Below, piece after piece: positions 20,611 to 53,956 of a DNA stretch of 64,000 bases. The notes beneath the pieces were generated by a model. The model was given only the letters and a program-made list of their open reading frames with translations. It ran no database searches and was not told the DNA's origin. The translations under genes and the position numbers were made by a program. The stretch is taken from the NCBI GenBank assembly GCA_964574655.1, contig CAZNOH010000002.1, positions 108,596 through 172,595 on the forward strand. Reading direction: 5' to 3'. Within the stretch, counting starts at the first letter, position 1. Every line of letters starts with the position of its first letter. This DNA is from an uncultured Candidatus Saccharibacteria bacterium. GTDB taxonomy: Bacteria > Patescibacteriota > JABMPQ01 > JAQVVF01.

Positions 20611-20612
20611 TT

Positions 20613-22567: not shown

Positions 22568-22645
22568 AGAGGTCCGACCTCTCACTAGAGGTCGGACCTC
22601 TTCAGACCTTAACAATAAAAAAATCCGTCAAAAACGGATTACAAA
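22568..22645. terminator. two hairpins: a 15-bp perfect palindrome (gaggtccgacctct-cacta-gaggtcggacctct), then atccgt...acggat with a T-run on the minus strand (terminator of 22665-22889)
   Basis: Read directly. Confidence 0.55.
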
Positions 22646-25567: not shown

Positions 25568-25746
25568 TAATAATATAGCATATTTACAGTTGTTTAGAAA
25601 TTGGTTATTAGAAATTTAATAGACATTAGGAATTGGTAATTAGAAATTCGTAGCGAAGTTATCAACCATTCATAATTGTCCATTTAAACAATTTTTGCTA
25701 TAATATAATAAACGAAAGAAAATCTTAAAACAAAAGACAATTAATC

Positions 25747-30146: not shown

Positions 30147-30213
30147 TTTACATAAAAGCCAGCAAATTAAAATGCTGGTTTTTTTAAATCATGAATGTTA
30201 TATTATCATAATC

Positions 30214-30322
30214 ACCAAGATACAAGATACAAACAAATTTTAAATTAAAATAATCAAACACGACGACGAGTTTGGTCATTGTAATTTAGATATTGAATAT
30301 TGTTTGTTTCTTGTATCTTGGT
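30214..30322. repeat. intergenic palindromic element (caagataca word arms, centre aaacacgacgacgagtttgg)
   Basis: accaagatacaagatacaaacaaatt...attgtttgtttcttgtatcttggt. Confidence 0.75.
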
Positions 30323-30334
30323 TATTAAGTATTA

Positions 30335-31453
30335 ATGTTTATGTATTTATCTTCTCTACAACTTCAAAACTTTAGAAATTATAAAGATTTTGCTAGTAGT
30401 TTCATCAATGGCCTAATTATTTTGACTGGCCCAAATGCTTCCGGAAAAACCAACCTGCTAGAAGCAGTCCAGCTTTTATCTTTATCAAAGTCATTTCGTG
30501 TCAGAAGTGAATATGATTTAGTTTTGTTTGGTATGGATTTTGCAAAAATTTTAGGCACTGTTCAAAAAAATAGCCAGCAAATAAAATTAGATATTACAAT
30601 TGATTCTCTTACATCTAAAAATCAAAAAACAATAAAAATAGATGGTCTTAAAAGTCGCGCTTTTGATTTGATCGGTGAGTTAGTTACAGTTCTTTTTTCT
30701 CCAGAAGATCTCAATTTAATCAATTCTACACCATCACTTCGTCGGCGTTATCTAGATGTTGTTATCTGTCAAATTGATAAAGATTACTGCCGTAATTTAG
30801 CAGAATACAAGAAAGTATTAATAAACCGCAATCAACTTTTACTGAACATTAAAAATGGCTATTCTACTAAGCAAGAGCTCAGTTTTTGGAATGAAAAACT
30901 AATTGATTTAGGTTCAAAAATCATTGCAAAACGCCAGCAAGCTTTAAAATTTTTAAATTCCAGATTGTCGGAAATTTATAATGACATTTGTGCAACCAAA
31001 GATCAAAAACTTCGGATTATTTACAAACCAAACCTACCATTGATTCAAGATTCTGATATTAAAGCATTGTTCGAACAAGAGCTAAATAATAAATACGAAC
31101 GTGAAATTTATAAAACCTATACTTTAGTCGGTCCGCATCGCGATAATTTTGTTTTTGAACTTAATAAAAAAAGACTCGCTGTTTTTGGCTCGCGAGGAGA
31201 ATATCGAAGTTCAATCTTAGCTTTAAAATCAGCTGAGTTAGATTTTATTGAAAAAAGTTTAGGCGAACGCCCAATACTTTTGCTTGATGATGTTTTTTCC
31301 GAATTAGATGAAAAACGCCGAAATCATATGTTTGAATTAGTTAGACGCCAGCAAACATTCATTACCACAGCTGATTTTGTTGGACTTGAAGTTGGATTTG
31401 TCAGAGAAGCACAAGTGCTACAGATTAAGGAAGGTGAAATCACTAATAAATAA
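30335..31453 (+). CDS. recF: DNA replication and repair protein RecF
   Basis: LQLQNFRNY, Walker A GPNASGKTNLLEAV, and C-terminal LLLDDVFSELD. Confidence 0.85.
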   Translation: MFMYLSSLQLQNFRNYKDFASSFINGLIILTGPNASGKTNLLEAVQLLSLSKSFRVRSEYDLVLFGMDFAKILGTVQKNSQQIKLDITIDSLTSKNQKTIKIDGLKSRAFDLIGELVTVLFSPEDLNLINSTPSLRRRYLDVVICQIDKDYCRNLAEYKKVLINRNQLLLNIKNGYSTKQELSFWNEKLIDLGSKIIAKRQQALKFLNSRLSEIYNDICATKDQKLRIIYKPNLPLIQDSDIKALFEQELNNKYEREIYKTYTLVGPHRDNFVFELNKKRLAVFGSRGEYRSSILALKSAELDFIEKSLGERPILLLDDVFSELDEKRRNHMFELVRRQQTFITTADFVGLEVGFVREAQVLQIKEGEITNK

Positions 31454-31597
31454 AAAACAAAAACACAAAAATGCAAAAAACAAACAAATCCCAAAATACA
31501 AAAAACAAAACACAAATCTTTTCTTTCGTTTTTGTAATTTGGGTTTTGTGATTTGTAATTTATTTGTTTTTTGTCTTTTTGTTTTTTTAGCAAAATT
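31454..31597. repeat. intergenic palindromic element, acaaaca/tgtttgt subfamily
   Basis: aaaaacaaaaacacaaaaatgcaaaaaacaaacaaatcccaaaatacaaaaaacaaaacacaaatc...tttttgtaatttgggttttgtgatttgtaatttatttgttttttg. Confidence 0.75.
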
Positions 31598-31897
31598 ATG
31601 TCAATCTTTTCTCTCAAAGATCTTCTGCCCTTATCAATTAATAGAGCAGGCATTGGAACTCAGCTTGAGGCATCTCAGGTTTGTTTAACTTGCGAAAAAT
31701 TAATTAAAGAATTAGATCAAAAAATTTTTCAAGAAATAAAACCAGTCAGTTTCAAAAACAAAACTTTAACAATCCAAGTTCCGTCATCTTCCCACGCCCA
31801 AGAATTATTAATGCATCAACATATCATCAAACAAAAAATCAACCAGCATTTTAAGAAACAGCTGGTTGATCGTATAAGTTATAAAATTAATTTCTAA
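31598..31897 (+). CDS. DUF721-family protein (recF-associated)
   Basis: Immediately downstream of recF. About 100 aa with the LTCEKL...KTLTIQVPSSSHAQEL pattern typical of DUF721. Confidence 0.55.
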   Translation: MSIFSLKDLLPLSINRAGIGTQLEASQVCLTCEKLIKELDQKIFQEIKPVSFKNKTLTIQVPSSSHAQELLMHQHIIKQKINQHFKKQLVDRISYKINF

Positions 31898-32020
31898 TTT
31901 TCAATTTCTAATTTCTATTAAATTTTTAATGCTTAAAGTCCTAAACCATACGACGAATAGGTTTAAAAATTGATTCATTAGTAATTTAATAGAAATTTAA
32001 AATTAAAAATTAGAAATTCA
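31898..32020. repeat. intergenic palindromic element, ttctaattt/aaattagaa subfamily (centre ccatacgacgaatagg)
   Basis: ttctaattttcaatttctaatttctattaaatttttaatg...cattagtaatttaatagaaatttaaaattaaaaattagaaa. Confidence 0.75.
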
Positions 32021-32356
32021 TTAGATCTTTACCATTTTCTCAATATTAACAATAAAAATAGTTGCTCCTCCAATTCTGATCTTTGTTGCTTCATCAACAT
32101 TCATTCCGCTTTCCATGCCATGAGTCATGTAGGCTGGAGCAGAGATTACTTTTTCTTTTGTTTCGCAGTTTTTCTTGATGATCTCTAAAACTTTATCAAT
32201 CTTTCCGTCCTCAACGCCAACTAAAAAAGTGGTGTTTTTTTTCTCTAAAAATCCGCCTTCTGAAGTCAATTTAGTCAAACTAAAATTTCCAGCAACTAAT
32301 TCTGACTTCAATTTTTTCGTATTTTCTTTAGGAGTGATTATTACTAATAGTTTCAT
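32021..32356 (-). CDS. darA: cyclic-di-AMP receptor DarA (PII-like, DUF970)
   Basis: MKLLVIITPKEN...LTKLTSEGGFLEKKNTTFLVGVEDGKIDKVLEII...IGGATIFIVNIE. I align this by eye to B. subtilis DarA ([36 protein letters not shown]...GGATVFVLPV). Confidence 0.75.
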   Translation of the reverse strand: MKLLVIITPKENTKKLKSELVAGNFSLTKLTSEGGFLEKKNTTFLVGVEDGKIDKVLEIIKKNCETKEKVISAPAYMTHGMESGMNVDEATKIRIGGATIFIVNIEKMVKI

Positions 32357-32419
32357 ATTTTTTATTATATCACAAAATAATTGGAAGACAAAGTCTTTTG
32401 CTTTGACAAAAGCTTAGAA

Positions 32420-32556
32420 ATATAATAAAATAATTATAATACGAATAAAGTACGAATAATGCAAATGTTGCGAATTACGAATCGTCGTATTTGCAATTCG
32501 TATCATTTGCATTATTTGTATCTGCATTCGTATTATATTTTACCATTAACTACAGT
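32420..32556. repeat. intergenic palindromic element, tacgaat/attcgta subfamily (centre gcgaattacgaatcgtcgtat)
   Basis: acgaataatgcaaatgttgcgaattacgaatcgtcgtatt is almost identical to 57900-57945. Confidence 0.8.
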
Positions 32557-34515
32557 ATGAACATATCAACTCTGGCAAAAAAATTAGGTTACCATAGCCA
32601 AGAAATGCGTAAAATGATTGAGGCTATGGGTTATCGAATCCGACCAACAGCGTCGAAGATTTCTGATAAGAAAGCCAAAGAAATTACTAAAAAGATTGAA
32701 AAACTTGAAAAAGAAAAACAAGAAGAAAACGCAGAAGAAAAAAAGAAAACAGAAAAAGAAAAAGAGCCCAAAAAACTTTTTGTTTCGCAGACTATTACGG
32801 TAAAAGATTTTTCCCAAGTTTTAGATTTAGAAGTAACAGAAGTTATTAGGCAATTGATTCAAGAGGGAATAATGGCAACGATCAACGAAGAGATCGATTT
32901 TGAAACAGCCTCAATTATCGCCGAAGAACTAGGTTACAAAATAGAATTAAAAAAAGAAGAAAAAGATTTAGTCAAAGAAAAAGGTGTCAGAAAAAAGATC
33001 TTGGAAGATTTGTTATTAGAAGAAGAAAAAAATCTAAAACCACGTCCTCCAATTGTTGTTGTAATGGGTCATGTCGATCATGGTAAGACAAAATTACTTG
33101 ATACTATCAGGGAAACAAATATTATTGCTACTGAAGCAGGAGGAATTACTCAAAAAATTGGTGCTTATCAAGCAAAATGCAACGGCAAAATTATTACTTT
33201 TTTAGATACTCCAGGACACGAAGCTTTCAAAGCAATGCGCGAACGTGGCGCCAAAGTTACTGATTTAGCGATCCTCGTTGTTGCGGCTGACGATGGAGTT
33301 ATGCCTCAAACTGAAGAAGCAATCGCTCATGCTAAAAATGCCGGTGTGCCGATTATTGTCGCAATTAACAAAATAGATAAAGAGGGTGCAGATCCAGAAA
33401 AAGTAAAAAGACAACTAGCTGATTTAGGTTTACAGCCAGAAGATTGGGGTGGAGATACCATCATGGTAGAAATATCAGCCAAAATGAATACAAATATTGA
33501 TAAGCTTTTAGAAATGGTTTTATTGCAAGCAGAAATTCTAGAATTAAAATCCAATCAAGAATCTAAAGCCATTGGCACAATTATTGAATCAAACAAGGAT
33601 CCAAAGAGAGGTCCGGTAGCAACTGTTCTAATCCAAAATGGTACTTTGAATTTAGGTGATTATGTTACTTGCGGAAGTTACTACGGCAAGATAAAAGCCA
33701 TGGAAAATTTCTTAGGCAAAAGGATAAATCATGCCAAGCCAGCAACTCCTGTTCAAATTTTAGGTTTAACATCTGTCCCAGATTCAGGCGATATTTTGCA
33801 AGAAGAAAAATCTAAAGAATCAGCTAAAGAAAAAGTTGCAAAAATTGCAAAAGCGGAAATTAAAATTAAAAGAAATTTAACGCAAGAAGAAGAAAAGAAA
33901 ATTAAAAAACTTAATATTATTTTAATTGCTGATTTTTACGGATCTCTTGAAGCAATTATAGACGAGCTCAACAAGATTGAATCAAAACAAGTCATGCCTC
34001 ATATAATTGATTATTCTGCGGGCAAAATTACCGAATCAAATGTTATGAATGCTCAATCCTCAAATGCAATCATCTTTGGTTTCAATTCTAAGCCGACTAC
34101 AGTTGCATCTCGTTTTGCCGAAGACAAACATGTCAAGATTTTTTCTTTTGATATTATTTATGAATTAGTTGATGAAATCAAAAAACAATTAAGCTCTTTA
34201 ATAGAGCCAGAGATCATCAAAACTAAATTAGGCAAACTAAATGTTTTAGCAATCTTCCGTTCAGAAAAGAAAAGAAAAATTATTGGCGGTAGAGTATTGT
34301 CAGGTTATTTGCCAAAAGATGTAAAAGTCAAAATTTTTAGAGATGAAGAAGAAATCGGTTCAGGCAAGATTTCTAGCGTTCAAAAGCAAATGGCTGATGT
34401 TCAAAAAGCAGAAGCTGGATCAGAATGTGGAATGTCAATAGAAACAACAACAAAGATTAAAGAAGGAGATGTTGTAGAAGCTTGGAAGGAGGAAATAAAG
34501 AAGATAACACTTTAA
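32557..34515 (+). CDS. infB: translation initiation factor IF-2
   Basis: G domain [27 protein letters not shown] and NKIDK. ATG 32557 is preferred because the track's 32491 start lies inside the repeat element. Confidence 0.95.
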
Positions 34516-34631
34516 ATTAGAAACGATGCCAATCTACAAATTTTATGCCAATCTGCGAATTGCGAATCGTCTAAGCATTAGCAATCTGTAGATTGGCATA
34601 AAATTAGCATATTAGCATCATTTTATTTATT
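34516..34631. repeat. intergenic palindromic element (gccaatct/agattggc arms, centre gcgaattgcgaatcgtc)
   Basis: atgccaatctacaaattttatgccaatctgcgaattgcgaatcgtctaagcattagcaatctgtagattggcataaaattagcat. Confidence 0.8.
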
Positions 34632-34964
34632 ATGTCCCATAGACTTGAAAAATTAAACAGCCTAATTCAGCAAGAATTAGGTTTCATTATTAAAGAAGAA
34701 GTAGAATTGCCAATTGACTCATTGATCACAGTTTCCAAAGTTGATACTTCTGTTGACATCAAGCACACAAACGTGTATATTTCTGTGATCCCAAAAAACA
34801 AAGCAGTCAGCGTAATCAAAAAGCTCAATCACAATGTTTATCACCTCCAGCAAGCTTTAAACAAAAAATTAGTAATCCACTTCGTTCCAAAAATCAGATT
34901 TGTCTTAGACCATTCCGAAGAGCATGCCGCTCGCATCGAGGAAATCCTAAGCACAAAATCCTAA
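34632..34964 (+). CDS. rbfA: ribosome-binding factor A
   Basis: About 110 aa, in the conserved position after infB. LNSLIQQELGFIIKEEV...VSKVDTSVDIKHTNVYISV. Confidence 0.8.
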   Translation: MSHRLEKLNSLIQQELGFIIKEEVELPIDSLITVSKVDTSVDIKHTNVYISVIPKNKAVSVIKKLNHNVYHLQQALNKKLVIHFVPKIRFVLDHSEEHAARIEEILSTKS

Positions 34965-35090
34965 ATTCTAAATAAATTTAAAATCAAAAATATAAATGTT
35001 CAAAATCAGACGAAGAAATTTTGAACATTTGGAAATTTGGTTTTTGGATTTATTTAGAGTTTAGAATTTAGGATTTAGAATTTTGTAATC
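34965..35090. repeat. intergenic palindromic element, ctaaat/atttag subfamily
   Basis: ctaaattctaaataaatttaaaatcaaaaatataaatgttcaaaatcagacgaagaaattttgaacatttgg...ttggatttatttagagtttagaatttaggatttagaa. Confidence 0.75.
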
Positions 35091-36071
35091 ATGTTCAATT
35101 TTAATGACATTCAAATAAATCGCGCGCTTTATCTCATAAAGAAATCTCAAAATATTTTGATTATTTGTCATCGCAAGCCAGATGCTGACACTATTGGATC
35201 AGCATTGGCTTTAGGTAATATTTTGGAAAAACAAAATAAGAAAATTGAATATGCCTGCCAGGATCAAATTCCAGCCAAGTTTTTTTTCTTAAAAAATGCA
35301 AACAAAATAAAAAAAATTGATGAGATCTTAAAGGATTTTATTAATTATCAATTGCTGATTACTTTAGATTGCGGAAGCTTTGAACAAACAGGACTTCATA
35401 ATTTTTTCAGCATCAACGAATTTAAAACGCCAATTATAAATATTGATCATCATCATGACAATCCACATTTTGGCAGATTAAATATTATTAAAGCTAATGC
35501 TTCTTCAACTTCTGAAATTGTTCATAATTTTCTAGTAAAAATGAATGTTGATTTGGACAAGAATATTTCAACCAGTTTATTGAGTGGAATTTTTGCAGAC
35601 ACCGATAGTTTTAAAAATCCCAATACTTCTCATCACACTTTGAAAACTACATCCAGTCTTTTAGCTTCAGGCGCCAATCTAAAAGAAATTACAAAAAACA
35701 CTTTGCAAGATAAATCTTTGTCAACACTCAGACTTTGGGGTAAAATATTATCAGAAATAAAAAAGAATAAAACTTTCGGTATTGTTTACGCAGTCATTAT
35801 CAAAAAAGATTTGCAAGAATGTAATGCCAAGTCAGAAGATCTCGAAGGCATAGCAAATTTTTTGAATTCTATTCCTGATGTCAAAGCCTCATTAGTTTTA
35901 TCAGAAAATGAAAAAGGCGAAATCAAAGGTTCTCTTAGAACCTTGCATGATTATATTGATGTTTCCAAATTAGCGCGCAGTTTAGGAGGAGGAGGACACA
36001 AGAAGGCAGCAGGTTTTACAATTCCTGGCAGATTAATTAAGCAGGATAATGAGGTTAAGATAATAATTTAA
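35091..36071 (+). CDS. nrnA: DHH-family phosphoesterase NrnA (nanoRNase / pAp phosphatase)
   Basis: DHH motifs (ICHRKPDADTIGSALAL, DHHHDN) and a DHHA1 GGGGH motif (LGGGGHKKAAGFT). Confidence 0.75.
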   Translation: MFNFNDIQINRALYLIKKSQNILIICHRKPDADTIGSALALGNILEKQNKKIEYACQDQIPAKFFFLKNANKIKKIDEILKDFINYQLLITLDCGSFEQTGLHNFFSINEFKTPIINIDHHHDNPHFGRLNIIKANASSTSEIVHNFLVKMNVDLDKNISTSLLSGIFADTDSFKNPNTSHHTLKTTSSLLASGANLKEITKNTLQDKSLSTLRLWGKILSEIKKNKTFGIVYAVIIKKDLQECNAKSEDLEGIANFLNSIPDVKASLVLSENEKGEIKGSLRTLHDYIDVSKLARSLGGGGHKKAAGFTIPGRLIKQDNEVKIII

Positions 36072-36202
36072 AATCCTAAATCCTAAACTCTAAATTCTAA
36101 ATAAATTCAAATTACAAAATTAAAAATTCAAACAACGACGATTTTGTATTTTGGATTTTAAATTTATTTAGAATTTAGTATTTAGAGTTTAGAATTTAAT
36201 TT
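36072..36202. repeat. intergenic palindromic element, ctaaat/atttag subfamily (centre caaacaacgacgattttg)
   Basis: aaatcctaaatcctaaactctaaattctaaataaattcaaattacaaaat...attttgtattttggattttaaatttatttagaatttagtatttagagtttagaattt. Confidence 0.75.
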
Positions 36203-36964
36203 ATGTTTAGTAGTATCTCCGCCTATTTCTCAACATTTACTTTAATAAATTACATCACAACAATTTTAGACATTGGAATTGTTGCTGTTTTAATTTACTT
36301 TGTTTTTGCTTTTGTCAAAGGTACAAAAGCAACCAGAATTATTTATGGCATAATTATCTTAAGCATAGTTGTTGTCATTGGCAGATTATTAAGTCTGCAA
36401 ACTTTGAATTGGGTGTTGTCGCATTTAACATTATTAATTATTGTTGCAATACCAGTTGTCTTCCAGCCAGAACTAAGGCGTGCTTTGGAGAGACTAGGCC
36501 GTGCAAAATTCATTGGAAGCAACAAAAAAATGTCATTGAATGTTAAGGACATAATTCAGGCAATCGATATTTTAAAGAAAAATAAAATCGGTGCCTTAAT
36601 AGTTTTACAACGCAAGACCGGATTATTGGAATATATAGAATCTGGCACAGAGCTTAATGCCAATTTATCAACGGCATTATTATTAAATATATTTTTCCCA
36701 AATTCTCCGTTGCATGATGGTGCAGTAATTATATCTTCCAACAAAATTTTAGCAGCAGGTTGCATGTTGCCTCTTACAGAAGGCGAATATTCTTTAACTT
36801 ATGGCACTCGCCACAAAGCAGCTATCGGCGTTACCGAAAATACTGATGCTGTTGCTCTAGTTGTCTCTGAAGAAAGAGGAGAAGTATCTATTGCTGTTGA
36901 TGGCCAACTTGAAGAAAAAATAGGTGTTGATAAATTAGCGAACAAATTAGAACAATTAGTCTAA
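36203..36964 (+). CDS. cdaA: diadenylate cyclase CdaA (DAC domain)
   Basis: Three N-terminal TM helices, then DAC motifs GALIVLQRKTG, LHDGAVII and TRHKAAIGVTENTDAVALVVSEERGEVSIA. Confidence 0.85.
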   Translation: MFSSISAYFSTFTLINYITTILDIGIVAVLIYFVFAFVKGTKATRIIYGIIILSIVVVIGRLLSLQTLNWVLSHLTLLIIVAIPVVFQPELRRALERLGRAKFIGSNKKMSLNVKDIIQAIDILKKNKIGALIVLQRKTGLLEYIESGTELNANLSTALLLNIFFPNSPLHDGAVIISSNKILAAGCMLPLTEGEYSLTYGTRHKAAIGVTENTDAVALVVSEERGEVSIAVDGQLEEKIGVDKLANKLEQLV

Positions 36965-37098
36965 AATTTCTAATTTCTAATTTCTATTAAATTTTCATTG
37001 CTTCAATTTCTAAACTCGTCGACGGCGAACAGGTTTGAAAATTTATGCATTATAAATTTAATAAAAATTAGAAATTAGAAATTGAAAATTAAGTAACC
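36965..37098. repeat. intergenic palindromic element, ttctaattt/aaattagaa subfamily (centre aactcgtcgacggcgaacagg)
   Basis: aaatttctaatttctaatttctattaaattttcattgcttcaatttctaaactcgtcgacggcgaacaggtttgaaaatttatgcattataaatttaataaaaattagaaattagaaattgaaaatt. Confidence 0.8.
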
Positions 37099-38298
37099 AT
37101 GTCTAACAACTTTTATCTAAAAATTCTCGCCATAATCTCTGCAATCTTCCTGTGGTTTTTTGTTATCAATGAAGGTTTTCAGGTCAATAATCTTGATACT
37201 GAAATTCAAATCAAGGTTCATAATCTTTCCGAAGATTTGATGGTCACAAATAATTTAGAATCAGTCAAATTAAAACTTCGCGCGCCAACTGATGTCTGGC
37301 AAAAAAAAGATATTGCTAGCAAAATAAATGCCTCGATTGATTTGCAATATTTGGATCAAGGCGAATACGAAGTTGAAGTACAAGTAGAAACTTTAGACAA
37401 AAGCATTCAAATAATTGAACAAGATCCTGAATCAGTCCATGTTCTTCTATCTCCGATTATTTCAACTGAGGAACAGATTGAACTGGAAACATCAGGAAAT
37501 CTAGGCAAAGACTATGTTGCCGATAAACCAAAGTTTTCTCAAGAAAAAGCTAACGTAGAAAGCGCCCAAGTTATTTTAGACAAGATTGTCAAAGTTGTCG
37601 CGCCAATAAAATATGATAATGAAATGTCAGAAATAAAAAGAACAGTTGAATTAGAAGCAAGAGATAAAGATAATAAAAAAATTGATAAAGTAAATATCAC
37701 TCCAAAAACAATAGAAGTTATCATTCCAGTTAGTAAAGAAAATGGCGAAAAAACAGTTGGCGTTAAAGCTAATATAATTGGCAATCTTCCAGCAGGTGCA
37801 ACAATTGAAAAAATTGAGACCAATCCATCAACAGTTGTTATTAAAGGCAAAAATGAAAAAATAAAAAATATTGATACGGTTGAAACTAGTCAAATTAATT
37901 TAAGTGAAATAACTGAAGATGTTAATACAAAAACAGTTGGTTTGGAACTGGCAGAAGGAATAGAAGCAAAAGACAATCCGCAAATTACCGTTACGATTTA
38001 TCTTAGCCAAGAAAAAATTTCCAAATCATTTTCCGGAATTATTAAATATAAAAATCTTAGCGACCGATTTAAAGTTGGAGGCATTATGCCAAGCCGTATC
38101 CAATTGACAATTGAAGGCCCTTCTGCTAAAATCAATAGCTTGAATGAAGATCAAGTTTTTGTGGAAATTGATTTAGCAAATAAATCAGAAGGAACTCCAG
38201 AATTCAATATTTCGCCTGAGAGTATTTCTGTGCCATCGGGTATTTCTGTCAAAAGTGTTGAAACAAAAAATGTTAAGGTGATAATAATCAGAAAATAA
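37099..38298 (+). CDS. cdaR: CdaA regulatory protein CdaR (YbbR-like domain repeats)
   Basis: Immediately after cdaA. N-terminal TM followed by repeated YbbR-type beta modules. Assigned by operon context and architecture. Confidence 0.6.
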   Translation: MSNNFYLKILAIISAIFLWFFVINEGFQVNNLDTEIQIKVHNLSEDLMVTNNLESVKLKLRAPTDVWQKKDIASKINASIDLQYLDQGEYEVEVQVETLDKSIQIIEQDPESVHVLLSPIISTEEQIELETSGNLGKDYVADKPKFSQEKANVESAQVILDKIVKVVAPIKYDNEMSEIKRTVELEARDKDNKKIDKVNITPKTIEVIIPVSKENGEKTVGVKANIIGNLPAGATIEKIETNPSTVVIKGKNEKIKNIDTVETSQINLSEITEDVNTKTVGLELAEGIEAKDNPQITVTIYLSQEKISKSFSGIIKYKNLSDRFKVGGIMPSRIQLTIEGPSAKINSLNEDQVFVEIDLANKSEGTPEFNISPESISVPSGISVKSVETKNVKVIIIRK

Positions 38299-38302
38299 TT
38301 CA

Positions 38303-38331
38303 CGTAGAGACGTTGCAATGCAACGTCTCTA
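38303..38331 (+). terminator. perfect palindrome gtagagacgttgca-a-tgcaacgtctctac
   Basis: Read directly, between cdaR and clpP. Confidence 0.55.
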
Positions 38332-38351
38332 CCAAGAAATAATTTTTAAAC

Positions 38352-38924: not shown

Positions 38925-38926
38925 AA

Positions 38927-39055
38927 ATGAAAAAAATCACCAATATTTTAAGGTCAATGCCAGTCGTTATTATAGGTTTTATTTCTGGTATATTTTTATT
39001 TGGAATCTTGGGTTTGCTTTGGCGAAGAAAGAAGAAGAAAGAAATTAAAAAATAA
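38927..39055 (+). CDS. unannotated small membrane protein (42 aa)
   Basis: MKKITNILRSMPVVIIGFISGIFLFGILGLLWRRKKKKEIKK*. Starts 2 nt after the clpP stop. Below the ORF-track cutoff. Confidence 0.4.
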   Translation: MKKITNILRSMPVVIIGFISGIFLFGILGLLWRRKKKKEIKK

Positions 39056-39071
39056 TTTATTTTATCGCGTA

Positions 39072-39130
39072 GGGGCGGAGTTTATCTCCGCCTTTTTCAA
39101 TAAAAAAAATCTCACCAGGTGGTGAGTTTT
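39072..39130. terminator. convergent terminator pair: ggcggag-tttat-ctccgcc plus T-run (plus strand) and ctcaccaggtggtgag (minus-strand terminator of 39158-39535)
   Basis: Read directly. Confidence 0.55.
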
Positions 39131-39157
39131 ATATTTAAGGTGCATTTTTTAGTTTTT

Positions 39158-39535
39158 TTATCTTGGTACTTCGCGATAAGTAGGTTCACTATGCGGGGTC
39201 AAATCTGCTACAGCAATGATTTTACCATTTTTTCTGCCAATATGAATTGTTACCTGGCATCTTTCTTGCGCTCCGATTATTTCAATAATTTCACGATCAA
39301 AACCTCTCTGTTCCCAACGCGTTCCTCGATAAATACTTACAACAGCTTCATTGCCATCAAAACCAGTAAAGACTCCTTGATAAGACTGAAGATAACCATC
39401 TTTATCAAACTTTCCCATTGATTCTAACTCTTCCGGCGTTCTTGCCCAAAAGGAGCCATCAATGAAAGTTCTTCTTTTAGATTCTGCAAGATGATAAAGA
39501 AAATCCTCATCAATTACAACTTGCAGTTCAGACAC
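39158..39535 (-). CDS. hypothetical protein (125 aa), GTG start
   Basis: SD ggaggaaagaga then GTG. Elevated GC. No recognisable motif. Confidence 0.5.
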   Translation of the reverse strand: MSELQVVIDEDFLYHLAESKRRTFIDGSFWARTPEELESMGKFDKDGYLQSYQGVFTGFDGNEAVVSIYRGTRWEQRGFDREIIEIIGAQERCQVTIHIGRKNGKIIAVADLTPHSEPTYREVPR

Positions 39536-39569
39536 TCTCTTTCCTCCTTTTGTTTCAGACTGGCTTAAA

Positions 39570-39596
39570 TTTATAATATTTTGCCTTAATAGTCAA
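39570..39596 (-). promoter_or_regulatory. sigma70-like promoter (TTGACT ... TATAAA) for 39158-39535
   Basis: The reverse complement reads cttgactattaaggcaaaatattataaattt. Confidence 0.4.
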
Positions 39597-39903
39597 GTTT
39601 GCTTAACCAATCTAACTAGTTTAACTTTTCTAACCAGTCTAACCTTTTAATCTTGCCAAAAAAATTTATTTCTGCTATACTAAAAGAGTTAGATAACAAA
39701 TTCTAACATTATTAAATTAATTAACAGTCGCATCTGTAAATTGTTGAATTAAATCAAAATTTTACTTTAAGAATTATGTTTGATCTTGAAAAACATCTTT
39801 ATTCAAGCCAAAATCACTCAGAAATTACACTTATCAAGCTGATAAGCTCGTTTTAAAACCAAAGAAGAAATTTATTCACTTTTTATGGATGTGATGCAAT
39901 GAA

Positions 39904-41436
39904 ATGAATAGTCTAGTATTAATTGCAGTTGCTTCTGTTCTTGCGCTGGCCTTAGGCCTAGTAATCGGCTACATCTTAAGAAAGCTAATTGCCAAAAGCA
40001 GGCAAGATTCAGTTGAAGCAAAAACTCAAAATTTAGTAGAAACTGCAAAAGTAAAACAAAGAGAAATCCTATTAGAAACAAAGACTCAAGCTCTCGAAAT
40101 TAAAGAAAACGCTGAAAAAGAACAGCGAGAAGGAAGAGCCAAGCTTTTAGATTTTCAAGGAAAATTATCCCAAAGAGAAGGGATTTTGAATCAGAAATTA
40201 GAATCAATATCTCAAAAAGAAGAACAGCTAGAAAAAGGCAATCACACAGTCCAAAGAAAAACTCAAGAATTAGTCGAAATCCGCAAAAAGCAAATGGCAA
40301 CATTAGAAAAAGTTGCTTCTTTATCACGAGAAAAAGCCAAGGAAGTTCTTTTAGAAATGGTTGAAAAAGATCAGCAAGATCGTGTTTTAGAAATTGTCAA
40401 AAGAGCGGAAGACCGTGCCAAGGACGAGGCAGATACAAAGGCTCGCAATATTATTTCCCAAGCTATTGAAAAATATGCTCGATCTCAAGCTTCCGAATCA
40501 ACAGCTACAACCGTATCTTTGCCTTCTGATGAAATGAAGGGCAGAATTATCGGTCGTGAAGGCAGGAACATCAAGAAAATAGAAGAGCTTTGCGGTATTG
40601 AAATTGTTGTTGATGACACGCCAGAGGCAATCGTCATTTCTGGGTTCAATCCAATCAGGCGCCACGTAGCCAAGAGAACATTAGAAAAATTAATTCAAGA
40701 TGGTCGTATTCATCCAGCCAAAATTGAAGAAACAGTTGAGCAGGTCAAAAAAGAGATTGCTCGTGAAATCAAAGAAGCTGGCGAGCAAACAGTTTACGAA
40801 CTTGGTATTGCCGACTTAGATACAAAATTAGTTCAGTTATTAGGTCGTTTGCAATTCAGATCATCTTATGGCCAAAATGTTTTAAAGCACTCAATTGAAG
40901 TTGCGAATTTTTCCAAAATAATCGCTTCCGAGTTAGGAGCTGATGTTGAAATTGCTAAAAGAGCTGGCTTGCTTCATGATATTGGCAAGGCTGTTGATCA
41001 TGAAATTGAAGGAACGCATATTGAAATTGGTAAAAATATCTTGAAAAAGTTTGGCGTTTCCGAAGCAATCATTCATGCAATGGAATGTCATCATGAAGAT
41101 TATGAGCCAAAAACAGTTGAAGCAGTAATCGTTAAAGCTGCTGATGGAATTTCAGGTGCCAGACCAGGAGCTCGAAAAGACACTTATGAAAATTACATAA
41201 AACGTTTAACTGATCTTGAAAACATTGCGTTAAGTTTTGAAGGCGCTGAAAAAGCTTATGCTATTCAAGCTGGCCGTGAAGTTCGTGTTTTTGTCACTCC
41301 TGACCAAGTTGATGATTTAGCGGCTAAGAAATTATCTCAGAACATTGCTGACAAAATAGAAAAAGAATTAAAATATCCAGGCGAAATTAAAATCAGTGTA
41401 ATCCGTGAAACTAGAGCTGTGGATTTTGCTAGATAA
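39904..41436 (+). CDS. rny: ribonuclease Y
   Basis: N-terminal TM, coiled coil, KH domain (GRIIGREGRNIKKIEELCG) and HD domain (LHDIGKAVDHE). Confidence 0.9.
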   Translation: MNSLVLIAVASVLALALGLVIGYILRKLIAKSRQDSVEAKTQNLVETAKVKQREILLETKTQALEIKENAEKEQREGRAKLLDFQGKLSQREGILNQKLESISQKEEQLEKGNHTVQRKTQELVEIRKKQMATLEKVASLSREKAKEVLLEMVEKDQQDRVLEIVKRAEDRAKDEADTKARNIISQAIEKYARSQASESTATTVSLPSDEMKGRIIGREGRNIKKIEELCGIEIVVDDTPEAIVISGFNPIRRHVAKRTLEKLIQDGRIHPAKIEETVEQVKKEIAREIKEAGEQTVYELGIADLDTKLVQLLGRLQFRSSYGQNVLKHSIEVANFSKIIASELGADVEIAKRAGLLHDIGKAVDHEIEGTHIEIGKNILKKFGVSEAIIHAMECHHEDYEPKTVEAVIVKAADGISGARPGARKDTYENYIKRLTDLENIALSFEGAEKAYAIQAGREVRVFVTPDQVDDLAAKKLSQNIADKIEKELKYPGEIKISVIRETRAVDFAR

Positions 41437-41567
41437 AAAAATAACTCGCTAATAGTTTGCGAATATTTGCTAATCTTTTGCTAATAAAGTTTATTTCATG
41501 GTCATTGTCTTTTACTTTATTCGCAAACTATTCGCAAATATTAGCAAATTATTAGCGATCAACTTTT
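41437..41567. repeat. intergenic palindromic element, tagcaaat/atttgcta subfamily
   Basis: It shares tcattgtcttttactttatt and ttagcaaattattagcgat with the copy at 43582-43745. Confidence 0.8.
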
Positions 41568-42359: not shown

Positions 42360-42510
42360 AGAATAAAAATTCTAAATTCTAAATCCCAAACTCTAAATAA
42401 ATTCAAAATTTAAATTTCCAAAAGTTTCAAAAATTTAGAATTTTGGATTTTATATTTATTTAGAATTTAGAATTTAGTGTTTAGGATTTTTTTTAAAATA
42501 AAAATAATTT
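42360..42510. repeat. intergenic palindromic element, ctaaat/atttag subfamily
   Basis: aaattctaaattctaaatcccaaactctaaataaattcaaaatttaaatttccaaaagtttcaaaaatttagaattttggattttatatttatttagaatttagaatttagtgtttaggatt. Confidence 0.75.
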
Positions 42511-43581
42511 ATGTCAAATAAAACAAATCAACATCCATCAGAATTACGCCAAGACATTGTTTCTAAAAACTGGGTTGTCATTGCATCTGGAAGATCTAAG
42601 AGGCCAAAATCTTATGAAGGTCTTAAATCAGCAGTTTTAGAACAACCAAAAAAAGATTGTCCATTTTGTAATTTCGATAAACAGCAAGATGTCCAAGTCT
42701 CTTTAATCCATAAATTATCACAAAATGATCCTTATGTTAGCGAATTAAAAAAAGAAGGTAATCCTTTGCCGACTTGGAAAAAAGAGCCTTATAGCATTAT
42801 AGATATCCAAAACAAATTTCCTGCTTTTGTGAAAAATGTAAATTTTAAAGAAAAACAAGTTGGGCCGTATAAGGTATTGCCAGGCTATGGTTATCACGAA
42901 GTCATAATTCCAGCATCTCATGACAAAACTTATGGCCAGTTGCCTAATCAGAGAGTGAAAGAAATTATTGATGTTTTTCAAGCTCGCTATCTAGCTTTAG
43001 CAAAAGAACCGCACATTGATTATATTTCCATAATTCATAATCATCGGCCAGAAGCCGGCGCATCTATTGCTCATCCTCATTCACAGCTTTTTGCAATTCC
43101 AGTAATTCCCAAAGACATTAGAAATTCTCTGCATGGTTCTAGGAAATATTTTGAAGAACATGGCAAATGTCCGCATTGTGAAATATTAGAATGGGAAAGA
43201 AAAGAAAAAGCTCGTGTTATTTATGAAAACGAAGATTTTATCTGCGTTTGTCCGTTCACTTCAGTTGTTGCTTTTGAAGTAAGAATTTATCCCAAGCTCC
43301 ACTCGCCATATTTTGAAAGAATTGAAGATAACGAAAAGATAAGTTTAGCTAAAGCCTTGAAAGCTAGTTTAAGCAAAATTTTCAAGGCTTTGAATGATCC
43401 GCCATTCAATTTTTTCATACATACAGCGCCAGCTGATGAGCAAAATCATGATCATTATCATTGGCATATTGAGATATTGCCGAAAGTTACAATTTGGGCA
43501 GGATTTGAATTATCAACCGGAATTGAAATATCAACCGTTGAACCAGAACAAGCAGCAAAAACATTACGCGAGATTAAGTAA
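42511..43581 (+). CDS. galT: galactose-1-phosphate uridylyltransferase-family (HIT-like) enzyme
   Basis: Zinc site CPFCNFD, and later HPHSQLFAIP (the H-P-H-x-Q nucleotidyl-His motif). A second His cluster is HDHYHWHIE. Confidence 0.7.
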   Translation: MSNKTNQHPSELRQDIVSKNWVVIASGRSKRPKSYEGLKSAVLEQPKKDCPFCNFDKQQDVQVSLIHKLSQNDPYVSELKKEGNPLPTWKKEPYSIIDIQNKFPAFVKNVNFKEKQVGPYKVLPGYGYHEVIIPASHDKTYGQLPNQRVKEIIDVFQARYLALAKEPHIDYISIIHNHRPEAGASIAHPHSQLFAIPVIPKDIRNSLHGSRKYFEEHGKCPHCEILEWERKEKARVIYENEDFICVCPFTSVVAFEVRIYPKLHSPYFERIEDNEKISLAKALKASLSKIFKALNDPPFNFFIHTAPADEQNHDHYHWHIEILPKVTIWAGFELSTGIEISTVEPEQAAKTLREIK

Positions 43582-43745
43582 GAAAGTTATTAACATTTGA
43601 TCATTTGCTATTATATTTTGGCTTAGTTATAATAAAAACAACTTCGCTAATCATTTGCTAATACTTGCGAATAATTTGCTAATAAAAATTATTTTATGAT
43701 CATTGTCTTTTACTTTATTAGCAAATTATTAGCGATTAATGAAGG
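43582..43745. repeat. intergenic palindromic element, tagcaaat/atttgcta subfamily (sister copy of 41437-41567)
   Basis: cgctaatcatttgctaatacttgcgaataatttgctaataaaaattattttatgatcattgtcttttactttattagcaaattattagcgat. Confidence 0.8.
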
Positions 43746-43757
43746 GTGGTGATAAAC

Positions 43758-44039
43758 ATGACAAAAATGGCTTTAATTGAAAAATTATCCGCCAAATTAG
43801 GAATCTCAAAAAGAGAAACAGATAAATACATTTCAACATTCATTGAAATTGTTACTGAAGAATTAAAACAAGACAATAAAGTTGCTGTCACTGGTTTCGG
43901 TACTTTCTCAGTTTCAGATAGAAAAGCAAGAGAAGGTGTTAATCCACAAAATCCAAAACAAAGAATCACAATTCCTGCTATGAAATTACCAAAATTTACA
44001 GCCGGAAAAACGCTTAAAGATAATTTACGTGCTATTTAA
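43758..44039 (+). CDS. hup: HU-family DNA-binding protein
   Basis: SD gggtggtga. MTKMALIEKLSAKLGISKRETDKYISTFIEIVTEELK...GFGTFSVSDRKAREGVNPQNPKQRITIPAMKLPKFTAGKTLKD. Confidence 0.85.
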   Translation: MTKMALIEKLSAKLGISKRETDKYISTFIEIVTEELKQDNKVAVTGFGTFSVSDRKAREGVNPQNPKQRITIPAMKLPKFTAGKTLKDNLRAI

Positions 44040-44095
44040 AACTTAAAATTTTAATATATTTTTAAAGACGAGAATTTGCTTCTCGTCTTTTTAAT

Positions 44096-44190
44096 TATTG
44101 CGTTCCGACCCCTGCCATGGGCAGGGTAGAATTTTCGCCCACTTGTCAAAAAAATAGCAACTTCTACCCTCCCCATGGGAGGGGTAAAGA
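44096..44190. terminator. GC-rich compound hairpin region: ccctgcc-atg-ggcaggg, gggtagaa...ttctaccc, ccctccc-cat-gggaggg
   Basis: Read directly. The same ccctgcc/ggcaggg stem occurs after tRNA-Leu at 12128-12146. Confidence 0.5.
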
Positions 44191-44232
44191 AAGTTTTTTT
44201 AGTTTTTTAATTTTTTATGTTAAAATCATTTC

Positions 44233-46422
44233 ATGAATCAAATCCTAGATCAACTTAATCCAATTCAACGCGAGGCTGTTTTGCATCAAAATGGTCCTCT
44301 TTTAATTTTAGCTGGTGCCGGTTCTGGCAAAACAAAAACACTCACTCATCGCATTGCTTATCTGGTTTCGCAAGGCGTTTCGCCTTACCACATTTTAGCA
44401 GTTACTTTTACCAATAAAGCTGCGCAAGAGATGAAAAGCCGTGTTAGTAAATTAATGCGAGGAATTCAGAATAGAGAAAAGAGAATAGAGAAAAAATTCC
44501 CAATCTTGCCAACCTTGCCTATTGGCCAGGCAGGCAACAGACAAGTTCTCAATTCTCAATTCTCAATTCCGTTTCTTGGCACCTTTCATTCAGTTTGCGT
44601 TAAAATATTGCATCATGAAATTCATCATCTCGGTTATAGCAGAAATTTCAATATTTACGATTCCGAAGACCAGCTGTCGGCAATCAAACAATCAATGCGC
44701 AAATTGAATTATAATACTAACGAAATAAATCCAAGAATTATTCACTCAATAATTTCTAGTGCTAAGAATGACCTTTTAGATTTTAATGATTTGAAGAATA
44801 GATCTAACGAATTTATTGAAGAGGTTGCCGGAGAAACTTATGCCGTTTATCAAGCTTTTTTGAAAGAAAATAATGCTTTAGATTTTGATGATTTGATTAT
44901 GATGACAATCAAAATTTTCCAGAAATTTCCAAAAATATTAGCAAAATATCAAAATCAATTCAAATATATTTTAGTCGATGAATATCAGGATACCAACAAA
45001 GCGCAATATTTATTAATTAATCTTTTATCAAAACGCTATCAAAACATTACTGTTGTTGGTGATGACTGGCAATCAATTTATAGCTGGCGCGGCGCTGATA
45101 TTTCTAATATTTTAAATTTTGAAAAAGATTTTAAAAAAGCAAAAACATTAAAACTAGAACAAAATTATCGTTCTACTCAAAATATTCTGGATGTTGCGCA
45201 TTGCATAATCTCCAAAAATAAAAATAAAAAAAACAAAAAATTATGGACAGATAATGAAAAAGGAGATAAGCCAGTTTTGTTTGAAGCCGAAGACGAACGA
45301 GAAGAAGCAAATTACATAATAAACGAAATAAAAGATTCACAACAGCAATATAACAGATTTGTTGTTTTGTATCGCACCAATGCCCAATCACGATCTTTGG
45401 AAGAAAATTTTTTAAAGCATAACATTCCATACAAAATAATCGGTGGCTTAAAATTTTACGAACGAAAGGAAATCAAAGATATTCTTGCTTATCTTAGAGT
45501 TATCAATTCTTTCAAAGACACAGTTGGATTAAGCCGGATAATCAATACTCCGCCAAGAAGAATTGGCGCTAAAACTTTGGGAGCATTAGAAAAATATGCT
45601 AAACAAAATAAAATTGATTATATCAAAGCTTCAATCGCTTCTGAAAATATCTCAGGAGTATCAGCTCAAACCAAAAATAATCTCAACCAATTTGGCTTGA
45701 TTATGGAATATTTGAATAAGAAATCAAAAACAATTAACCTAACTTCTTTAATTGACCTATTATTAGCAAAAATAAATTACAAAGAATTTATTTTAGATGG
45801 AACAGAAGAAGGGGAATATCGTTGGGAGAATGTTCAAGAATTAAAAACTGTTGCTTCAAAATTTGATAAAAACACAGAAGGCTTGTCCAAATTTCTAGAA
45901 GAAGTTGCGCTAGTTTCAGATACAGATGAAGTTAATGACAAAAACAATGCTGTCACTTTAATGACTATGCATGCTACAAAAGGACTGGAATTTAGTAATG
46001 TTTTTATTGTCGGATTAGAAGAAAATCTTTTTCCTCATTCAAGAGCTTTAGCATCGCAAGAAGAGCTTGAAGAGGAGAGAAGATTGTGTTATGTTGCTAT
46101 GACCCGTGCCAAAGAAAAATTATACCTAACTTTTGCTAGAACGCGCGAGATTTATGGTCAAATGCAATCCAATCCGCAATCTCGTTTTATTGAGGATATT
46201 CCCAAAAAAAATCTTAATAGCCATTCAAAAAGTTTTAATGCAAAAACAATTTATCAAGACAATAAAAAAGATTGTGAATTTAAGTCCGGAGACAAGGTCA
46301 GGCATTCGCAATTTGGCAAAGGATTAGTTATTGGCTTTTCCGAAGATTTGATAACAGTAATATTCGAAAAAATTGGAATAAAGAAACTTGCACTTGAATA
46401 TGCCAAGTTGAAAAAATTTTGA
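44233..46422 (+). CDS. pcrA: ATP-dependent DNA helicase PcrA/UvrD family
   Basis: LNPIQREAV, Walker A AGAGSGKTKTLTHRIA, TFTNKAAQEM, GTFHS, VDEYQDTN. It contains an about 29-aa insertion between motifs I and Ia (see findings). Confidence 0.9.
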   Translation: MNQILDQLNPIQREAVLHQNGPLLILAGAGSGKTKTLTHRIAYLVSQGVSPYHILAVTFTNKAAQEMKSRVSKLMRGIQNREKRIEKKFPILPTLPIGQAGNRQVLNSQFSIPFLGTFHSVCVKILHHEIHHLGYSRNFNIYDSEDQLSAIKQSMRKLNYNTNEINPRIIHSIISSAKNDLLDFNDLKNRSNEFIEEVAGETYAVYQAFLKENNALDFDDLIMMTIKIFQKFPKILAKYQNQFKYILVDEYQDTNKAQYLLINLLSKRYQNITVVGDDWQSIYSWRGADISNILNFEKDFKKAKTLKLEQNYRSTQNILDVAHCIISKNKNKKNKKLWTDNEKGDKPVLFEAEDEREEANYIINEIKDSQQQYNRFVVLYRTNAQSRSLEENFLKHNIPYKIIGGLKFYERKEIKDILAYLRVINSFKDTVGLSRIINTPPRRIGAKTLGALEKYAKQNKIDYIKASIASENISGVSAQTKNNLNQFGLIMEYLNKKSKTINLTSLIDLLLAKINYKEFILDGTEEGEYRWENVQELKTVASKFDKNTEGLSKFLEEVALVSDTDEVNDKNNAVTLMTMHATKGLEFSNVFIVGLEENLFPHSRALASQEELEEERRLCYVAMTRAKEKLYLTFARTREIYGQMQSNPQSRFIEDIPKKNLNSHSKSFNAKTIYQDNKKDCEFKSGDKVRHSQFGKGLVIGFSEDLITVIFEKIGIKKLALEYAKLKKF

Positions 46423-46425
46423 ATA

Positions 46426-46513
46426 TTCTACCTGGCTTTAGCCAAGGGGTTAAAGGACTTTAGTCCTCGTTGGAGCTAAAGCTCCACGACCCTTCGGCTA
46501 AAGCCGAGTAGAA
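46426..46513. other. structured element: four consecutive mini-hairpins with cTTTAg/cTAAAg loops, enclosed by the outer stem ttctac/gtagaa
   Basis: ggctttagcc, ggactttagtcc, ggagctaaagctcc, cggctaaagccg. Hairpins 1/4 and 2/3 are mutual reverse complements. Confidence 0.6.
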
Positions 46514-46524
46514 AAATTTACATT

Positions 46525-53893: not shown

Positions 53894-53956
53894 TTTTAAA
53901 TTTCGAATTTTAAATTTTAAATAAATTTTAAAGTTTCTAATTTTAAAATAATATAA
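53894..53956. repeat. short intergenic palindromic element (ttttaaattt words)
   Basis: aattttaaatttcgaattttaaattttaaataaattttaaagtttctaattttaaaat. Confidence 0.6.

Follow-up and report, generated by a model that had tools for sequence, protein, structure and literature searches.

In a 64-kb stretch of DNA from an uncultured Candidatus Saccharibacteria bacterium (positions 108,596 to 172,595 of contig CAZNOH010000002.1; hereafter, the window), many genes begin a few nucleotides after the right arm of a long AT-rich palindromic element, and many genes lack a Shine-Dalgarno (SD) sequence. The question that this locus raises is whether the former explains the latter. A preliminary description of the window proposed that it does: the transcript would be cleaved at each element, giving near-leaderless monocistronic mRNAs that are expressed without SDs. 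In practice, the outcome for this claim is negative, in that the elements do not explain the missing SDs. As an account of the whole, we favour with moderate confidence a swarm of palindromic repeats under fast turnover, together with a separate and older loss of SDs.

The GC content of the window is 26-40% across most of its length, with one patch near 48%, in a genome of ~32% GC. Outside one accessory island, the gene content consists of housekeeping genes of the type found in Patescibacteria (candidate phyla radiation, CPR) and type IV secretion system (T4SS) genes. The genome of the window (W) was compared with its nearest public relatives, the metagenome-assembled genomes L002, L009, L003 and L012, which are labelled Patescibacteria. 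L002 is a syntenic sister genome (97% amino acid and ~83% nucleotide identity in cdaA), and L009 has the locus on a 645-kb contig (88% cdaA identity); the cdaA identities of L003 and L012 are 73% and 60%. A metagenome scan for further relatives yielded one short additional locus only.

The gene identities were confirmed for recF, dciA (formerly DUF721), infB, rbfA, cdaA, ymdB and galT, and in addition nrnA encodes a DHH/DHHA1 protein and cdaR a YbbR-domain protein. The label "VirB4 part 2" was wrong: the gene at 46525-47310 is rsmA/ksgA (PF00398), and the gene at 44233-46422 encodes UvrD/PcrA. The true VirB4 gene (55245-57080) is full length and unsplit. An in-frame split of VirB4 by the element at 55122-55244 was considered and rejected, since Patescibacteria homologues are 610-650 aa long and match the open reading frame (ORF) 55245-57080 only; the 123-nt in-frame spacing ahead of VirB4 is a coincidence.

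None of the ten genes listed in the preliminary description has an SD, as stated there: the energy (dG) of the duplex with GAUCACCUCCUUU is between -5 and +2, and the upstream strings quoted are correct. SD-bearing genes have values of -10 to -17, with 12 other genes of the window at -10 or stronger, and SD strength is bimodal. However, the lack of an SD is not particular to element-flanked genes. Native genes are equally SD-less with or without elements; ~20 of them have no element, including the overlapping operon genes at 26501, 29565, 48529, 58701 and 60178. Moreover, the same genes are SD-less in genomes that have no elements, which speaks against processing-dependent expression as the cause of the missing SDs. 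In L012, the infB-rbfA-nrnA-cdaA-cdaR operon has junctions of 6, 0, 36 and 0 nt, no elements and SD-less starts, and L003 has a similar operon with SD-less starts, no elements and short junctions (0-36 nt in the two genomes); a few small accessory ORFs nearby in L012 and L003 carry GGAGG or GGAGGG. As read from these genomes, SD-less starts are a lineage-wide trait that is independent of the elements. The searchable literature yielded no account of how Patescibacteria use SDs.

Nor is an SD always missing after an element, since two native element-flanked genes, hup and pilin-4, carry strong SDs; the products of both are probably abundant. The SDs of the window match the canonical 16S tail, ...GAUCACCUCC, and the anti-SD is thus presumably intact, though little used. 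SDs were also said to mark the visibly higher-GC genes; these do carry SDs, but the GC content of SD-bearing genes is only partly higher (0.31-0.50). The features concerned are as follows.

43742-43753: SD of hup, AAGGGTGGTGAT, conserved in L009
2402-2419, plus strand: SD and TTG start of pilin-4, with AAGGGGGTGAT at 2402-2412 and TTG at 2417
8011-21204, no strand: island of clustered SD-led genes, local GC reaching 0.48-0.52

The island at 8011-21204 holds genes for a TPR protein, unknown proteins of 48-52% GC, a phosphofructokinase and a Lamin-tail-domain (LTD) protein, as well as three small ORFs and a tRNA-Leu gene (12014-12098). It is free of palindromic elements within and was probably acquired. 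One more SD-led gene lies in a ~590-bp segment (39053-39646) that is absent from L002. It is a minus-strand ORF of 125 aa (39158-39535) without a Pfam match, whose GTG start is led by AAGGAGGAAAGAG and which adjoins GC-stem terminators. Pilin-4 is one of four tandem T4SS-pilin (PF18895) genes at 614-2803, and the only one among them with an SD and a TTG start.

The elements themselves were located by inverted-repeat search and folding. Nearly every gap between native co-directional genes holds one AT-rich imperfect palindrome of 100-150 nt (among the 23 co-directional gaps of >=100 nt, 16 have one), and every junction named in the preliminary description does contain a long imperfect inverted repeat. 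The main copies, listed without strand, are the following.

490-594: best-preserved element, ahead of pilin-1, with a 42-bp stem (41/42 complementary)
2279-2390: element upstream of pilin-4
11872-12001: element before tRNA-Leu, ending 12 nt upstream of the tRNA
30209-30327: recF 5' element, preceded by a terminator and a -10-like box; start codon of recF at 30341
31452-31588: recF/dciA junction element, AACAAA family; the L002 site is empty (ATAAA)
31885-32022: element between the convergent genes dciA (plus) and darA (minus)
32432-32540: element in the infB 5' untranslated region (UTR), ACGAAT/GCAAAT family; infB ATG at 32557
34521-34623: infB/rbfA element; another family at the L002 and L009 site
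34942-35083: rbfA/nrnA element, TCTAAAT family; the final 23 nt of rbfA lie in its left arm
36071-36197: nrnA/cdaA element, with TAGAAT at -13 to -8 of cdaA; the L009 site has a PF05635-bearing element
36956-37092: cdaA/cdaR element, 95% identical to that of L002
41437-41567: rny/ymdB element, GCTAAT family; another family in L002
42362-42494: ymdB/galT element, TCTAAAT family
43640-43745: hup 5' UTR element, followed by the strong SD and the hup ATG at 43758

The predicted stems are 37-53 bp long (31-60 pairs, 2-16 of them GC pairs) and are broken every 5-20 bp, with a longest unbroken helix of 11-23 bp per element; the exception is the element at 490-594, with 42 bp. This last stem had been described as perfect over ~37 bp at 491-593; it is indeed long, but its real extent is 490-594 and 41 of its 42 pairs are Watson-Crick. 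The predicted stem dG is -19 to -53 kcal/mol, with z scores of about -4 to -12 relative to dinucleotide shuffles. The arms are runs of tandem units of 7-9 nt (e.g. AAATCCT, CAATTTC, ACGAATN and AACAAAN), often with AATAAATT at the arm centre, and 13 of the 21 window copies show an asymmetry that does not depend on strand: their 5' arm is rich in C and poor in G, their 3' arm rich in G and poor in C. The short loops have a relatively high CG content and are enriched in CGWCG, which 8 of the 21 contain; 9 of the 27 occurrences of this motif in the window fall within this ~0.5% of the sequence. At gathering thresholds, the sole Rfam match in the window is the tRNA-Leu, and at E<=1 nothing meaningful appears in 30-47 kb.

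Selection on the stems as sense-strand RNA was considered and rejected, since G.U-type mismatches on the sense strand (67) do not exceed A.C-type mismatches (79) and there is no strand-specific signal. Promoter regions and leaders also contain "half elements", in which T-rich tandem units similar to a right arm have no complementary left arm (25590-25650 of the window; 4150-4196 and 6310-6356 of L002).

With start codons curated by orthologue alignment (recF 30341, dciA 31598, infB 32557), the right arm ends 13 nt before the start codon in recF (30327 to 30341), 9-10 in dciA, 16 in infB, 8 in rbfA, 7 in nrnA, 5 in cdaA, 6-15 in cdaR, 0-9 in ymdB and 16 in galT. The close spacing noted earlier, given as 1-15 nt, thus holds in kind, with curated values of 5-16 nt for the listed genes. 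Within operons, the left arm begins anywhere from 23 nt before the end of the preceding gene to 5 nt past its stop. The extreme case is rbfA, whose last 23 nt (34942-34964), including the stop codon, belong to the left arm of the downstream element, likewise in L002; the element thus supplies the C-terminal codons of rbfA. Folding of the hairpin would leave most of the positions -40 to -11 in pairs (probability of being unpaired, 0.16-0.25) and about half of those from -10 to +20 open, as in the coding region; this predicted profile fits a constraint that keeps the start codon outside the stem. The element that ends 12 nt before tRNA-Leu indicates that the geometry is not tied to translation.

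Comparison of genomes shows that the elements are dispersed and change rapidly. Paralogous copies are 80-92% identical over 100-130 nt and fall into several families, which are common to W, L002 and L009 at non-orthologous sites; in the TCTAAAT family, it is the outer ~21 bp of the arm that is conserved. At 4-fold degenerate sites, W and L002 are 54% identical, which is close to saturation. Against this background, the rbfA/nrnA elements of the two genomes are 96% identical, with a compensatory change from T:A to C:G, the cdaA/cdaR elements are 95% identical, with an indel of one heptamer, and the nrnA/cdaA elements are 86% identical, with unit indels. At the infB/rbfA and rny/ymdB sites, L002 carries another family than W, and its recF/dciA junction has no element at all, being the 5 nt ATAAA; an expression mechanism that depends on processing at these junctions is hard to reconcile with such differences. 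Furthermore, recF and infB of L002 are preceded by an unpaired T-rich leader only. Since sites may be near-identical, replaced or empty, the elements are best described as dispersed repeats under turnover or homogenisation rather than as a fixed expression signal. They recur in separate assemblies (W, L002, L009, L010 and L011) and are therefore not assembly artefacts. As dispersed multi-copy elements with terminal inverted repeats, they resemble MITEs; comparison of the empty L002 site (taaATAAAatg) with the filled sites of W and L009 showed no clear duplication in the AT-rich flanks.

Some copies carry a gene in the loop. This gene encodes a protein of the family PF05635 (23S_rRNA_IVP), and in the window there are one such copy and one closely related copy without an ORF.

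53894-54377, plus strand: PF05635-bearing element, with the gene at 53957-54313 in the loop
53274-53459, no strand: ORF-less sibling; 34 of 35 nt of its left arm agree with the PF05635-bearing copy

The arms of the gene-bearing copy (53894-53956 and 54314-54377) pair with a predicted dG of -29 kcal/mol. At the nrnA/cdaA site of L009, the element (9515-10000) likewise has a PF05635 gene (9565-9942) in its loop, and three further contexts in unrelated Patescibacteria (L013 2410-2849, L017 2024-2943 and L018 2440-2900) lie between two large ORFs, at ftsE/ftsX and directly upstream of rpoB, in each case with the gene in the same direction as the host genes and with tight flanks. In all five contexts examined, the PF05635 gene thus lies between inverted tandem-unit arms in an operon junction. 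Patescibacteria (CPR) data contain >8000 PF05635 homologues at E<1e-5, the best 120 of which are 63-75% identical to the query. No PF05635 gene remnants were found by tblastn inside the ORF-less loops.

The same protein family is known from intervening sequences (IVSs) of rRNA genes. In IVSs of 23S rRNA, terminal repeats pair into a stem whose loop sometimes holds an S23p/PF05635 ORF, and RNase III removes the IVS by cutting in mid-stem (PMC4990558); rRNA genes of CPR contain 23S_rRNA_IVP ORFs as well as short uncharacterised IVS-like inserts (PMC11270868). The elements have the terminal inverted repeats with an extended stem-loop and, in some copies, the optional ORF in the loop, whereas they lie between protein genes, in 5' UTRs and before a tRNA instead of in helices of 23S or 16S rRNA. 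The elements are thus intergenic palindromic repeats whose architecture comes closest to that of rRNA IVSs. Since this is the architecture of IVSs that RNase III excises, including the PF05635 gene in the loop, the stems are plausible RNase III-type substrates, and we put the chance that element-bearing transcripts are indeed cleaved at about even. In Coxiella, RNase III cuts the IVS inside the stem (PMC4990558); cuts in mid-stem would leave a 10-25 nt AU-rich leader from the right arm, not a near-leaderless end. The window contains no gene for RNase III (rnc) in its annotation and no rRNA genes; the sole endoribonuclease gene seen is the following.

39904-41436, plus strand: rny (RNase Y)

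Promoter predictions bear on the same question. Predicted promoters directly precede four elements, those of infB, hup, recF and DUF2079, and this again does not suit processing-dependent expression. Since they end where the left arm begins, the primary transcript would start with the hairpin. The relevant sites are listed below.

32403-32431, plus strand: predicted sigma-70 promoter of infB, TTGACA-17-TAAAAT, one base before the left arm
43605-43633, plus strand: predicted hup promoter, TTGCTA-17-TATAAT, just upstream of the element
30200-30212: -10-like boxes of recF, after the terminator
2870-2878: predicted promoter of DUF2079, TGgTAAAAT
30157-30190, plus strand: intrinsic terminator after orf193, a GC stem with a T run

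Canonical GC-stem/T-run terminators lie at operon ends (30157-30190, 39111-39126 and 44064-44090), and a terminator scan reported canonical sites at 30159, 39111 and 44064 and none at the elements. Given these terminators elsewhere, the AT-rich elements are not the ordinary terminators of this organism.

For many SD-less genes, transcription may start at or near the start codon. Of 50 SD-less genes in W and L012, 16 have a -10-like TANNNT whose end lies 6-7 nt from the ATG (~4.8 expected), which is far commoner than at other positions upstream, and a stricter -10 motif occurs at this spacing in 9 of 50 (1.9 expected); pooled over four genomes, a -10-like box at leaderless spacing is found in 25 of 80. 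A -10 box close to the start codon has served as a signature for inferring leaderless genes elsewhere (PMC3160421, PMC6028130), and genes without SDs generally have little structure around the start (PMC5397173). For example, darA has TTGTCT-16-TATAAT 7 nt before its ATG, with the -10 conserved in W and L009, uvrD has TGtTAAAAT-CATTTC-ATG, conserved in L009, and cdaA of the element-free L012 has TGTATAAT-TAAAAT-ATG. Among the genes listed in the preliminary description, only cdaA has a good -10 box at leaderless spacing. In other genes, a good promoter precedes an SD-less leader of 30-45 nt that is A-rich or U-rich (e.g. 25747, 47486 and infB of L002). The enrichment of -10 boxes 6-7 nt before the ATG suggests leaderless transcripts that arise from transcription initiation and not from processing. 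Thus, leaderless expression, as had been proposed, finds partial support (~30% of the genes without SDs have such a box), though probably by way of transcription initiation and independently of the elements.

According to the account that we favour, the repeats would have colonised once-tiny operon junctions and 5' UTRs in one small Patescibacteria clade. Most native genes would initiate SD-free from an A/U-rich, little-structured start region, perhaps one third of them on leaderless transcripts with the -10 box 6-7 nt before the ATG and the other SD-less genes probably through coupling within operons, while a canonical anti-SD that still works would be used by accessory genes, hup and pilin. 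The short distance between arm and ATG would be mainly a leftover of the ancestral short junction, with a lower bound because the start codon has to remain free of the stem. The elements would be co-transcribed, folded as RNA and probably cut by RNase III like rRNA IVSs, with cleavage as a side effect or a stability feature that translation does not need.

The main alternative is RNA punctuation, in which RNase III cuts operon transcripts at each hairpin to give monocistronic, near-leaderless mRNAs whose SD-less translation depends on the cut. Stems of 37-53 bp with unbroken runs of 11-23 bp (one of 42 bp) are of a size suited to RNase III, the architecture is that of RNase III-excised rRNA IVSs down to the PF05635 cargo (PMC4990558, PMC11270868), the intact hairpin would sequester positions -40 to -11, and elements occupy most operon-internal junctions (16 of the 23 larger co-directional gaps). 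However, SD loss is older than the elements and occurs without them, L002 has no element at recF/dciA and only half elements before recF and infB, four elements begin at predicted transcription start sites, one lies ahead of a tRNA, hup and pilin-4 retain their SDs after an element, and the mismatch types give no excess of G.U (67) over A.C (79) on the sense strand. Known RNase III cuts, moreover, lie in mid-stem and leave a leader (PMC4990558). We consider it quite unlikely that punctuation of this kind operates, and equally so that cleavage is required for expression or yields near-leaderless mRNAs. A related possibility is that IVS-like elements, spread with or by the PF05635 gene, escaped from rRNA and became, in one Patescibacteria clade, the standard spacers between genes, where they serve as punctuation marks for RNase III or RNase Y. 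This we regard as unlikely too; if it were true, transcripts would be cut into mRNAs with AU-rich leaders, a bacterial analogue of mitochondrial tRNA punctuation, and PF05635 proteins would help to move or maintain the elements.

It has also to be asked whether the elements act on transcription or couple translation. The tandem units of the right arms (TTTAGA, TTGAAA, TTGCAA, TTAGCA) might serve as -35 boxes, so that each gene would have its own leaderless or short-leader transcript: the 7-nt periodicity sets a -10-like TAGAAT ~17 nt downstream, with TTTAGA-17-TAGAAT before cdaA and nrnA, TANNNT ends at -8/-7 in 10 of 34 window genes, and the -10 boxes of darA and uvrD at leaderless spacing are conserved in W and L009, to which may be added TGTATAAT 6 nt before the ATG of cdaA in element-free L012. 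Yet promoter-like matches in 29.5-47.5 kb are only modestly above shuffles (89 vs 72.6 +/- 8), the -10 signal is no commoner in element-flanked genes than in others, many right arms have no credible -10 at the right distance, and a left arm with the same units would, by symmetry, drive transcription antisense to the upstream gene; we doubt that the arms are promoters. Structural coupling, in which the hairpin juxtaposes the upstream stop and the downstream start so that the terminating ribosome melts the base of the stem and re-initiates without an SD, would keep up the translational coupling of the ancestral operon; it appears very unlikely. The left arm does begin -23 to +5 nt from the stop, only 5-16 nt separate the right arm from the start and the ancestral junctions are 0-6 nt, but insertion into a tiny gap would trivially produce the same geometry, and elements are found at sites that allow no coupling, namely in 5' UTRs, between convergent genes and ahead of a tRNA. 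That the hairpins are terminators, attenuators or insulators is highly improbable: some right arms run into T-rich tracts (42494, 61558 and 31588) and two elements lie between convergent genes, but operon ends already have canonical GC-stem/T-run terminators, the AU-rich element stems of 40-50 bp mostly lack a U tract, and elements are found inside conserved operons and directly after promoters.

Several points weigh against the repeat-swarm account that we favour. The SD comparison covers ~50 genes in the window and ~50 in four relatives. It is from their distribution that the elements may be called mobile: neither a transposase nor any other gene for mobility turned up in the window, and no target-site duplication is definable; the cargo product PF05635 is not a known transposase. 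The 95-96% identity of two elements against a saturated synonymous background could reflect strong purifying selection and hence a sequence-specific function, instead of recent spread or homogenisation. Co-transcription, folding and cleavage of the elements are all inferences from sequence. Finally, the stems reach to within 5-16 nt of the ATG and cover positions -40 to -11, a region that the 30S subunit is commonly assumed to touch, and a direct effect on initiation is therefore plausible.

The surroundings of the elements offer some observations of their own. A c-di-AMP module at 32021-38298 comprises the receptor gene darA (PF06153, minus strand), the phosphoesterase gene nrnA, the cyclase gene cdaA and that of its YbbR-domain partner; these genes are interleaved with infB and rbfA, and relatives with as little as 60% identity keep the order. 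The product of 61565-63208 combines a fifth pilin domain with GDSL-lipase and SLT transglycosylase domains. Upstream of the minus-strand gene 6359-7945, three tandem copies of a ~12-nt unit (AAAAAAATCAAC) occupy 7946-8010, and TAGAAT lies 7 nt ahead of the ATG of this gene. In addition, the window has a second class of palindromes, which are GC-rich (38299-38351, 44100-44200, 46423-46524, 22555-22605 and 12205-12240). Several have GTAG...CTAC or TTCTAC...GTAGAA ends, e.g. GTAGAGACGTTGCAATGCAACGTCTCTAC; those at 38303, 44100 and 46426 have GTAG/CTAC ends and are reminiscent of GTAG-tagged REP elements. The one at the gene first taken for VirB4 is given below; it contains four small hairpins with CTTTAG/CTAAAG loops.

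46423-46524, no strand: GC-rich compound palindrome before rsmA/ksgA, TTCTAC...GTAGAA, of a class apart from the AT-rich elements

Patescibacteria make up a large and mostly uncultured share of bacterial diversity, and their gene expression is almost unknown. A lineage that translates most genes SD-free yet keeps a working anti-SD for a minority is of interest in this respect, and SD-free starts matter for gene calling and for heterologous expression of Patescibacteria genes. Stem-loops of the rRNA-IVS type that occur in large numbers at mRNA junctions, including copies with PF05635, are a new setting for such sequences; no description of elements of this type at mRNA junctions or in Patescibacteria was found in the searchable literature. 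PF05635 proteins and IVS elements have puzzled researchers since the 1990s; the link to mRNA junctions is a testable entry point to their role, and it also provides a way to ask whether RNase III processing of mRNA is widespread in Patescibacteria.

Among known systems, the Correia/NEMIS elements of Neisseria and the ERIC elements of enterobacteria are reportedly cut by RNase III and RNase E, respectively (work of De Gregorio et al.). Like the elements described here, they are imperfect palindromes of ~100-150 nt in transcribed intergenic regions; they are co-transcribed and can hold promoter-like boxes, whereas co-transcription here is presumed. Unlike them, our elements form multiple divergent families with internal tandem periodicity and PF05635 cargo, show no sequence similarity to them, and have no identified TA target duplication or integration host factor (IHF) site. 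The mechanism of the preliminary description is that of phage T7 and of mitochondria: Dunn and Studier are said to have found T7 early mRNA to be cut at RNase III sites between cistrons, with T7 genes keeping their SDs, and Ojala et al. reportedly described tRNA punctuation in mitochondria, where structured spacers are cut and the released mRNAs are leaderless. Unlike in those systems, the spacers here are dispensable across sister genomes.

REP/BIME sequences are also high-copy extragenic palindromes, with proposed roles in mRNA stability or termination (PMC3333891, PMC3733652). However, REPs are GC-rich sequences of 20-40 nt with GTAG or CGTC heads and associated RAYT transposases (PMC3333891, PMC3733652), while the AT-rich elements are 3-5x longer, have A/T-rich ends and lack such heads. 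We rejected an assignment to REP/BIME on the grounds of length (100-150 nt), AT-richness and the window, in which no RAYT gene was seen. In its translation signals, the lineage resembles SD-poor and leaderless bacteria, where most genes have no SD and starts are A/U-rich and low in structure (PMC5397173, PMC3160421, PMC6028130); it differs in belonging to the Patescibacteria and in retaining the canonical SD for a minority of genes.

The rRNA IVSs of Coxiella, Leptospira, Salmonella and CPR share with the elements an extended stem made of terminal inverted repeats, the existence of ORF-less (~100 nt) and ORF-bearing forms, the ORF being a PF05635/S23p four-helix-bundle gene in the loop, and a sporadic distribution, suggestive of horizontal gene transfer, in reduced genomes (PMC4990558, PMC11270868). 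Excision by RNase III belongs to the rRNA IVSs and may extend to the elements. In contrast to rRNA IVSs, the elements occupy mRNA junctions and 5' UTRs instead of helices of 23S or 16S rRNA, have arms composed of tandem units of 7-9 nt and reach tens of copies per 64 kb.

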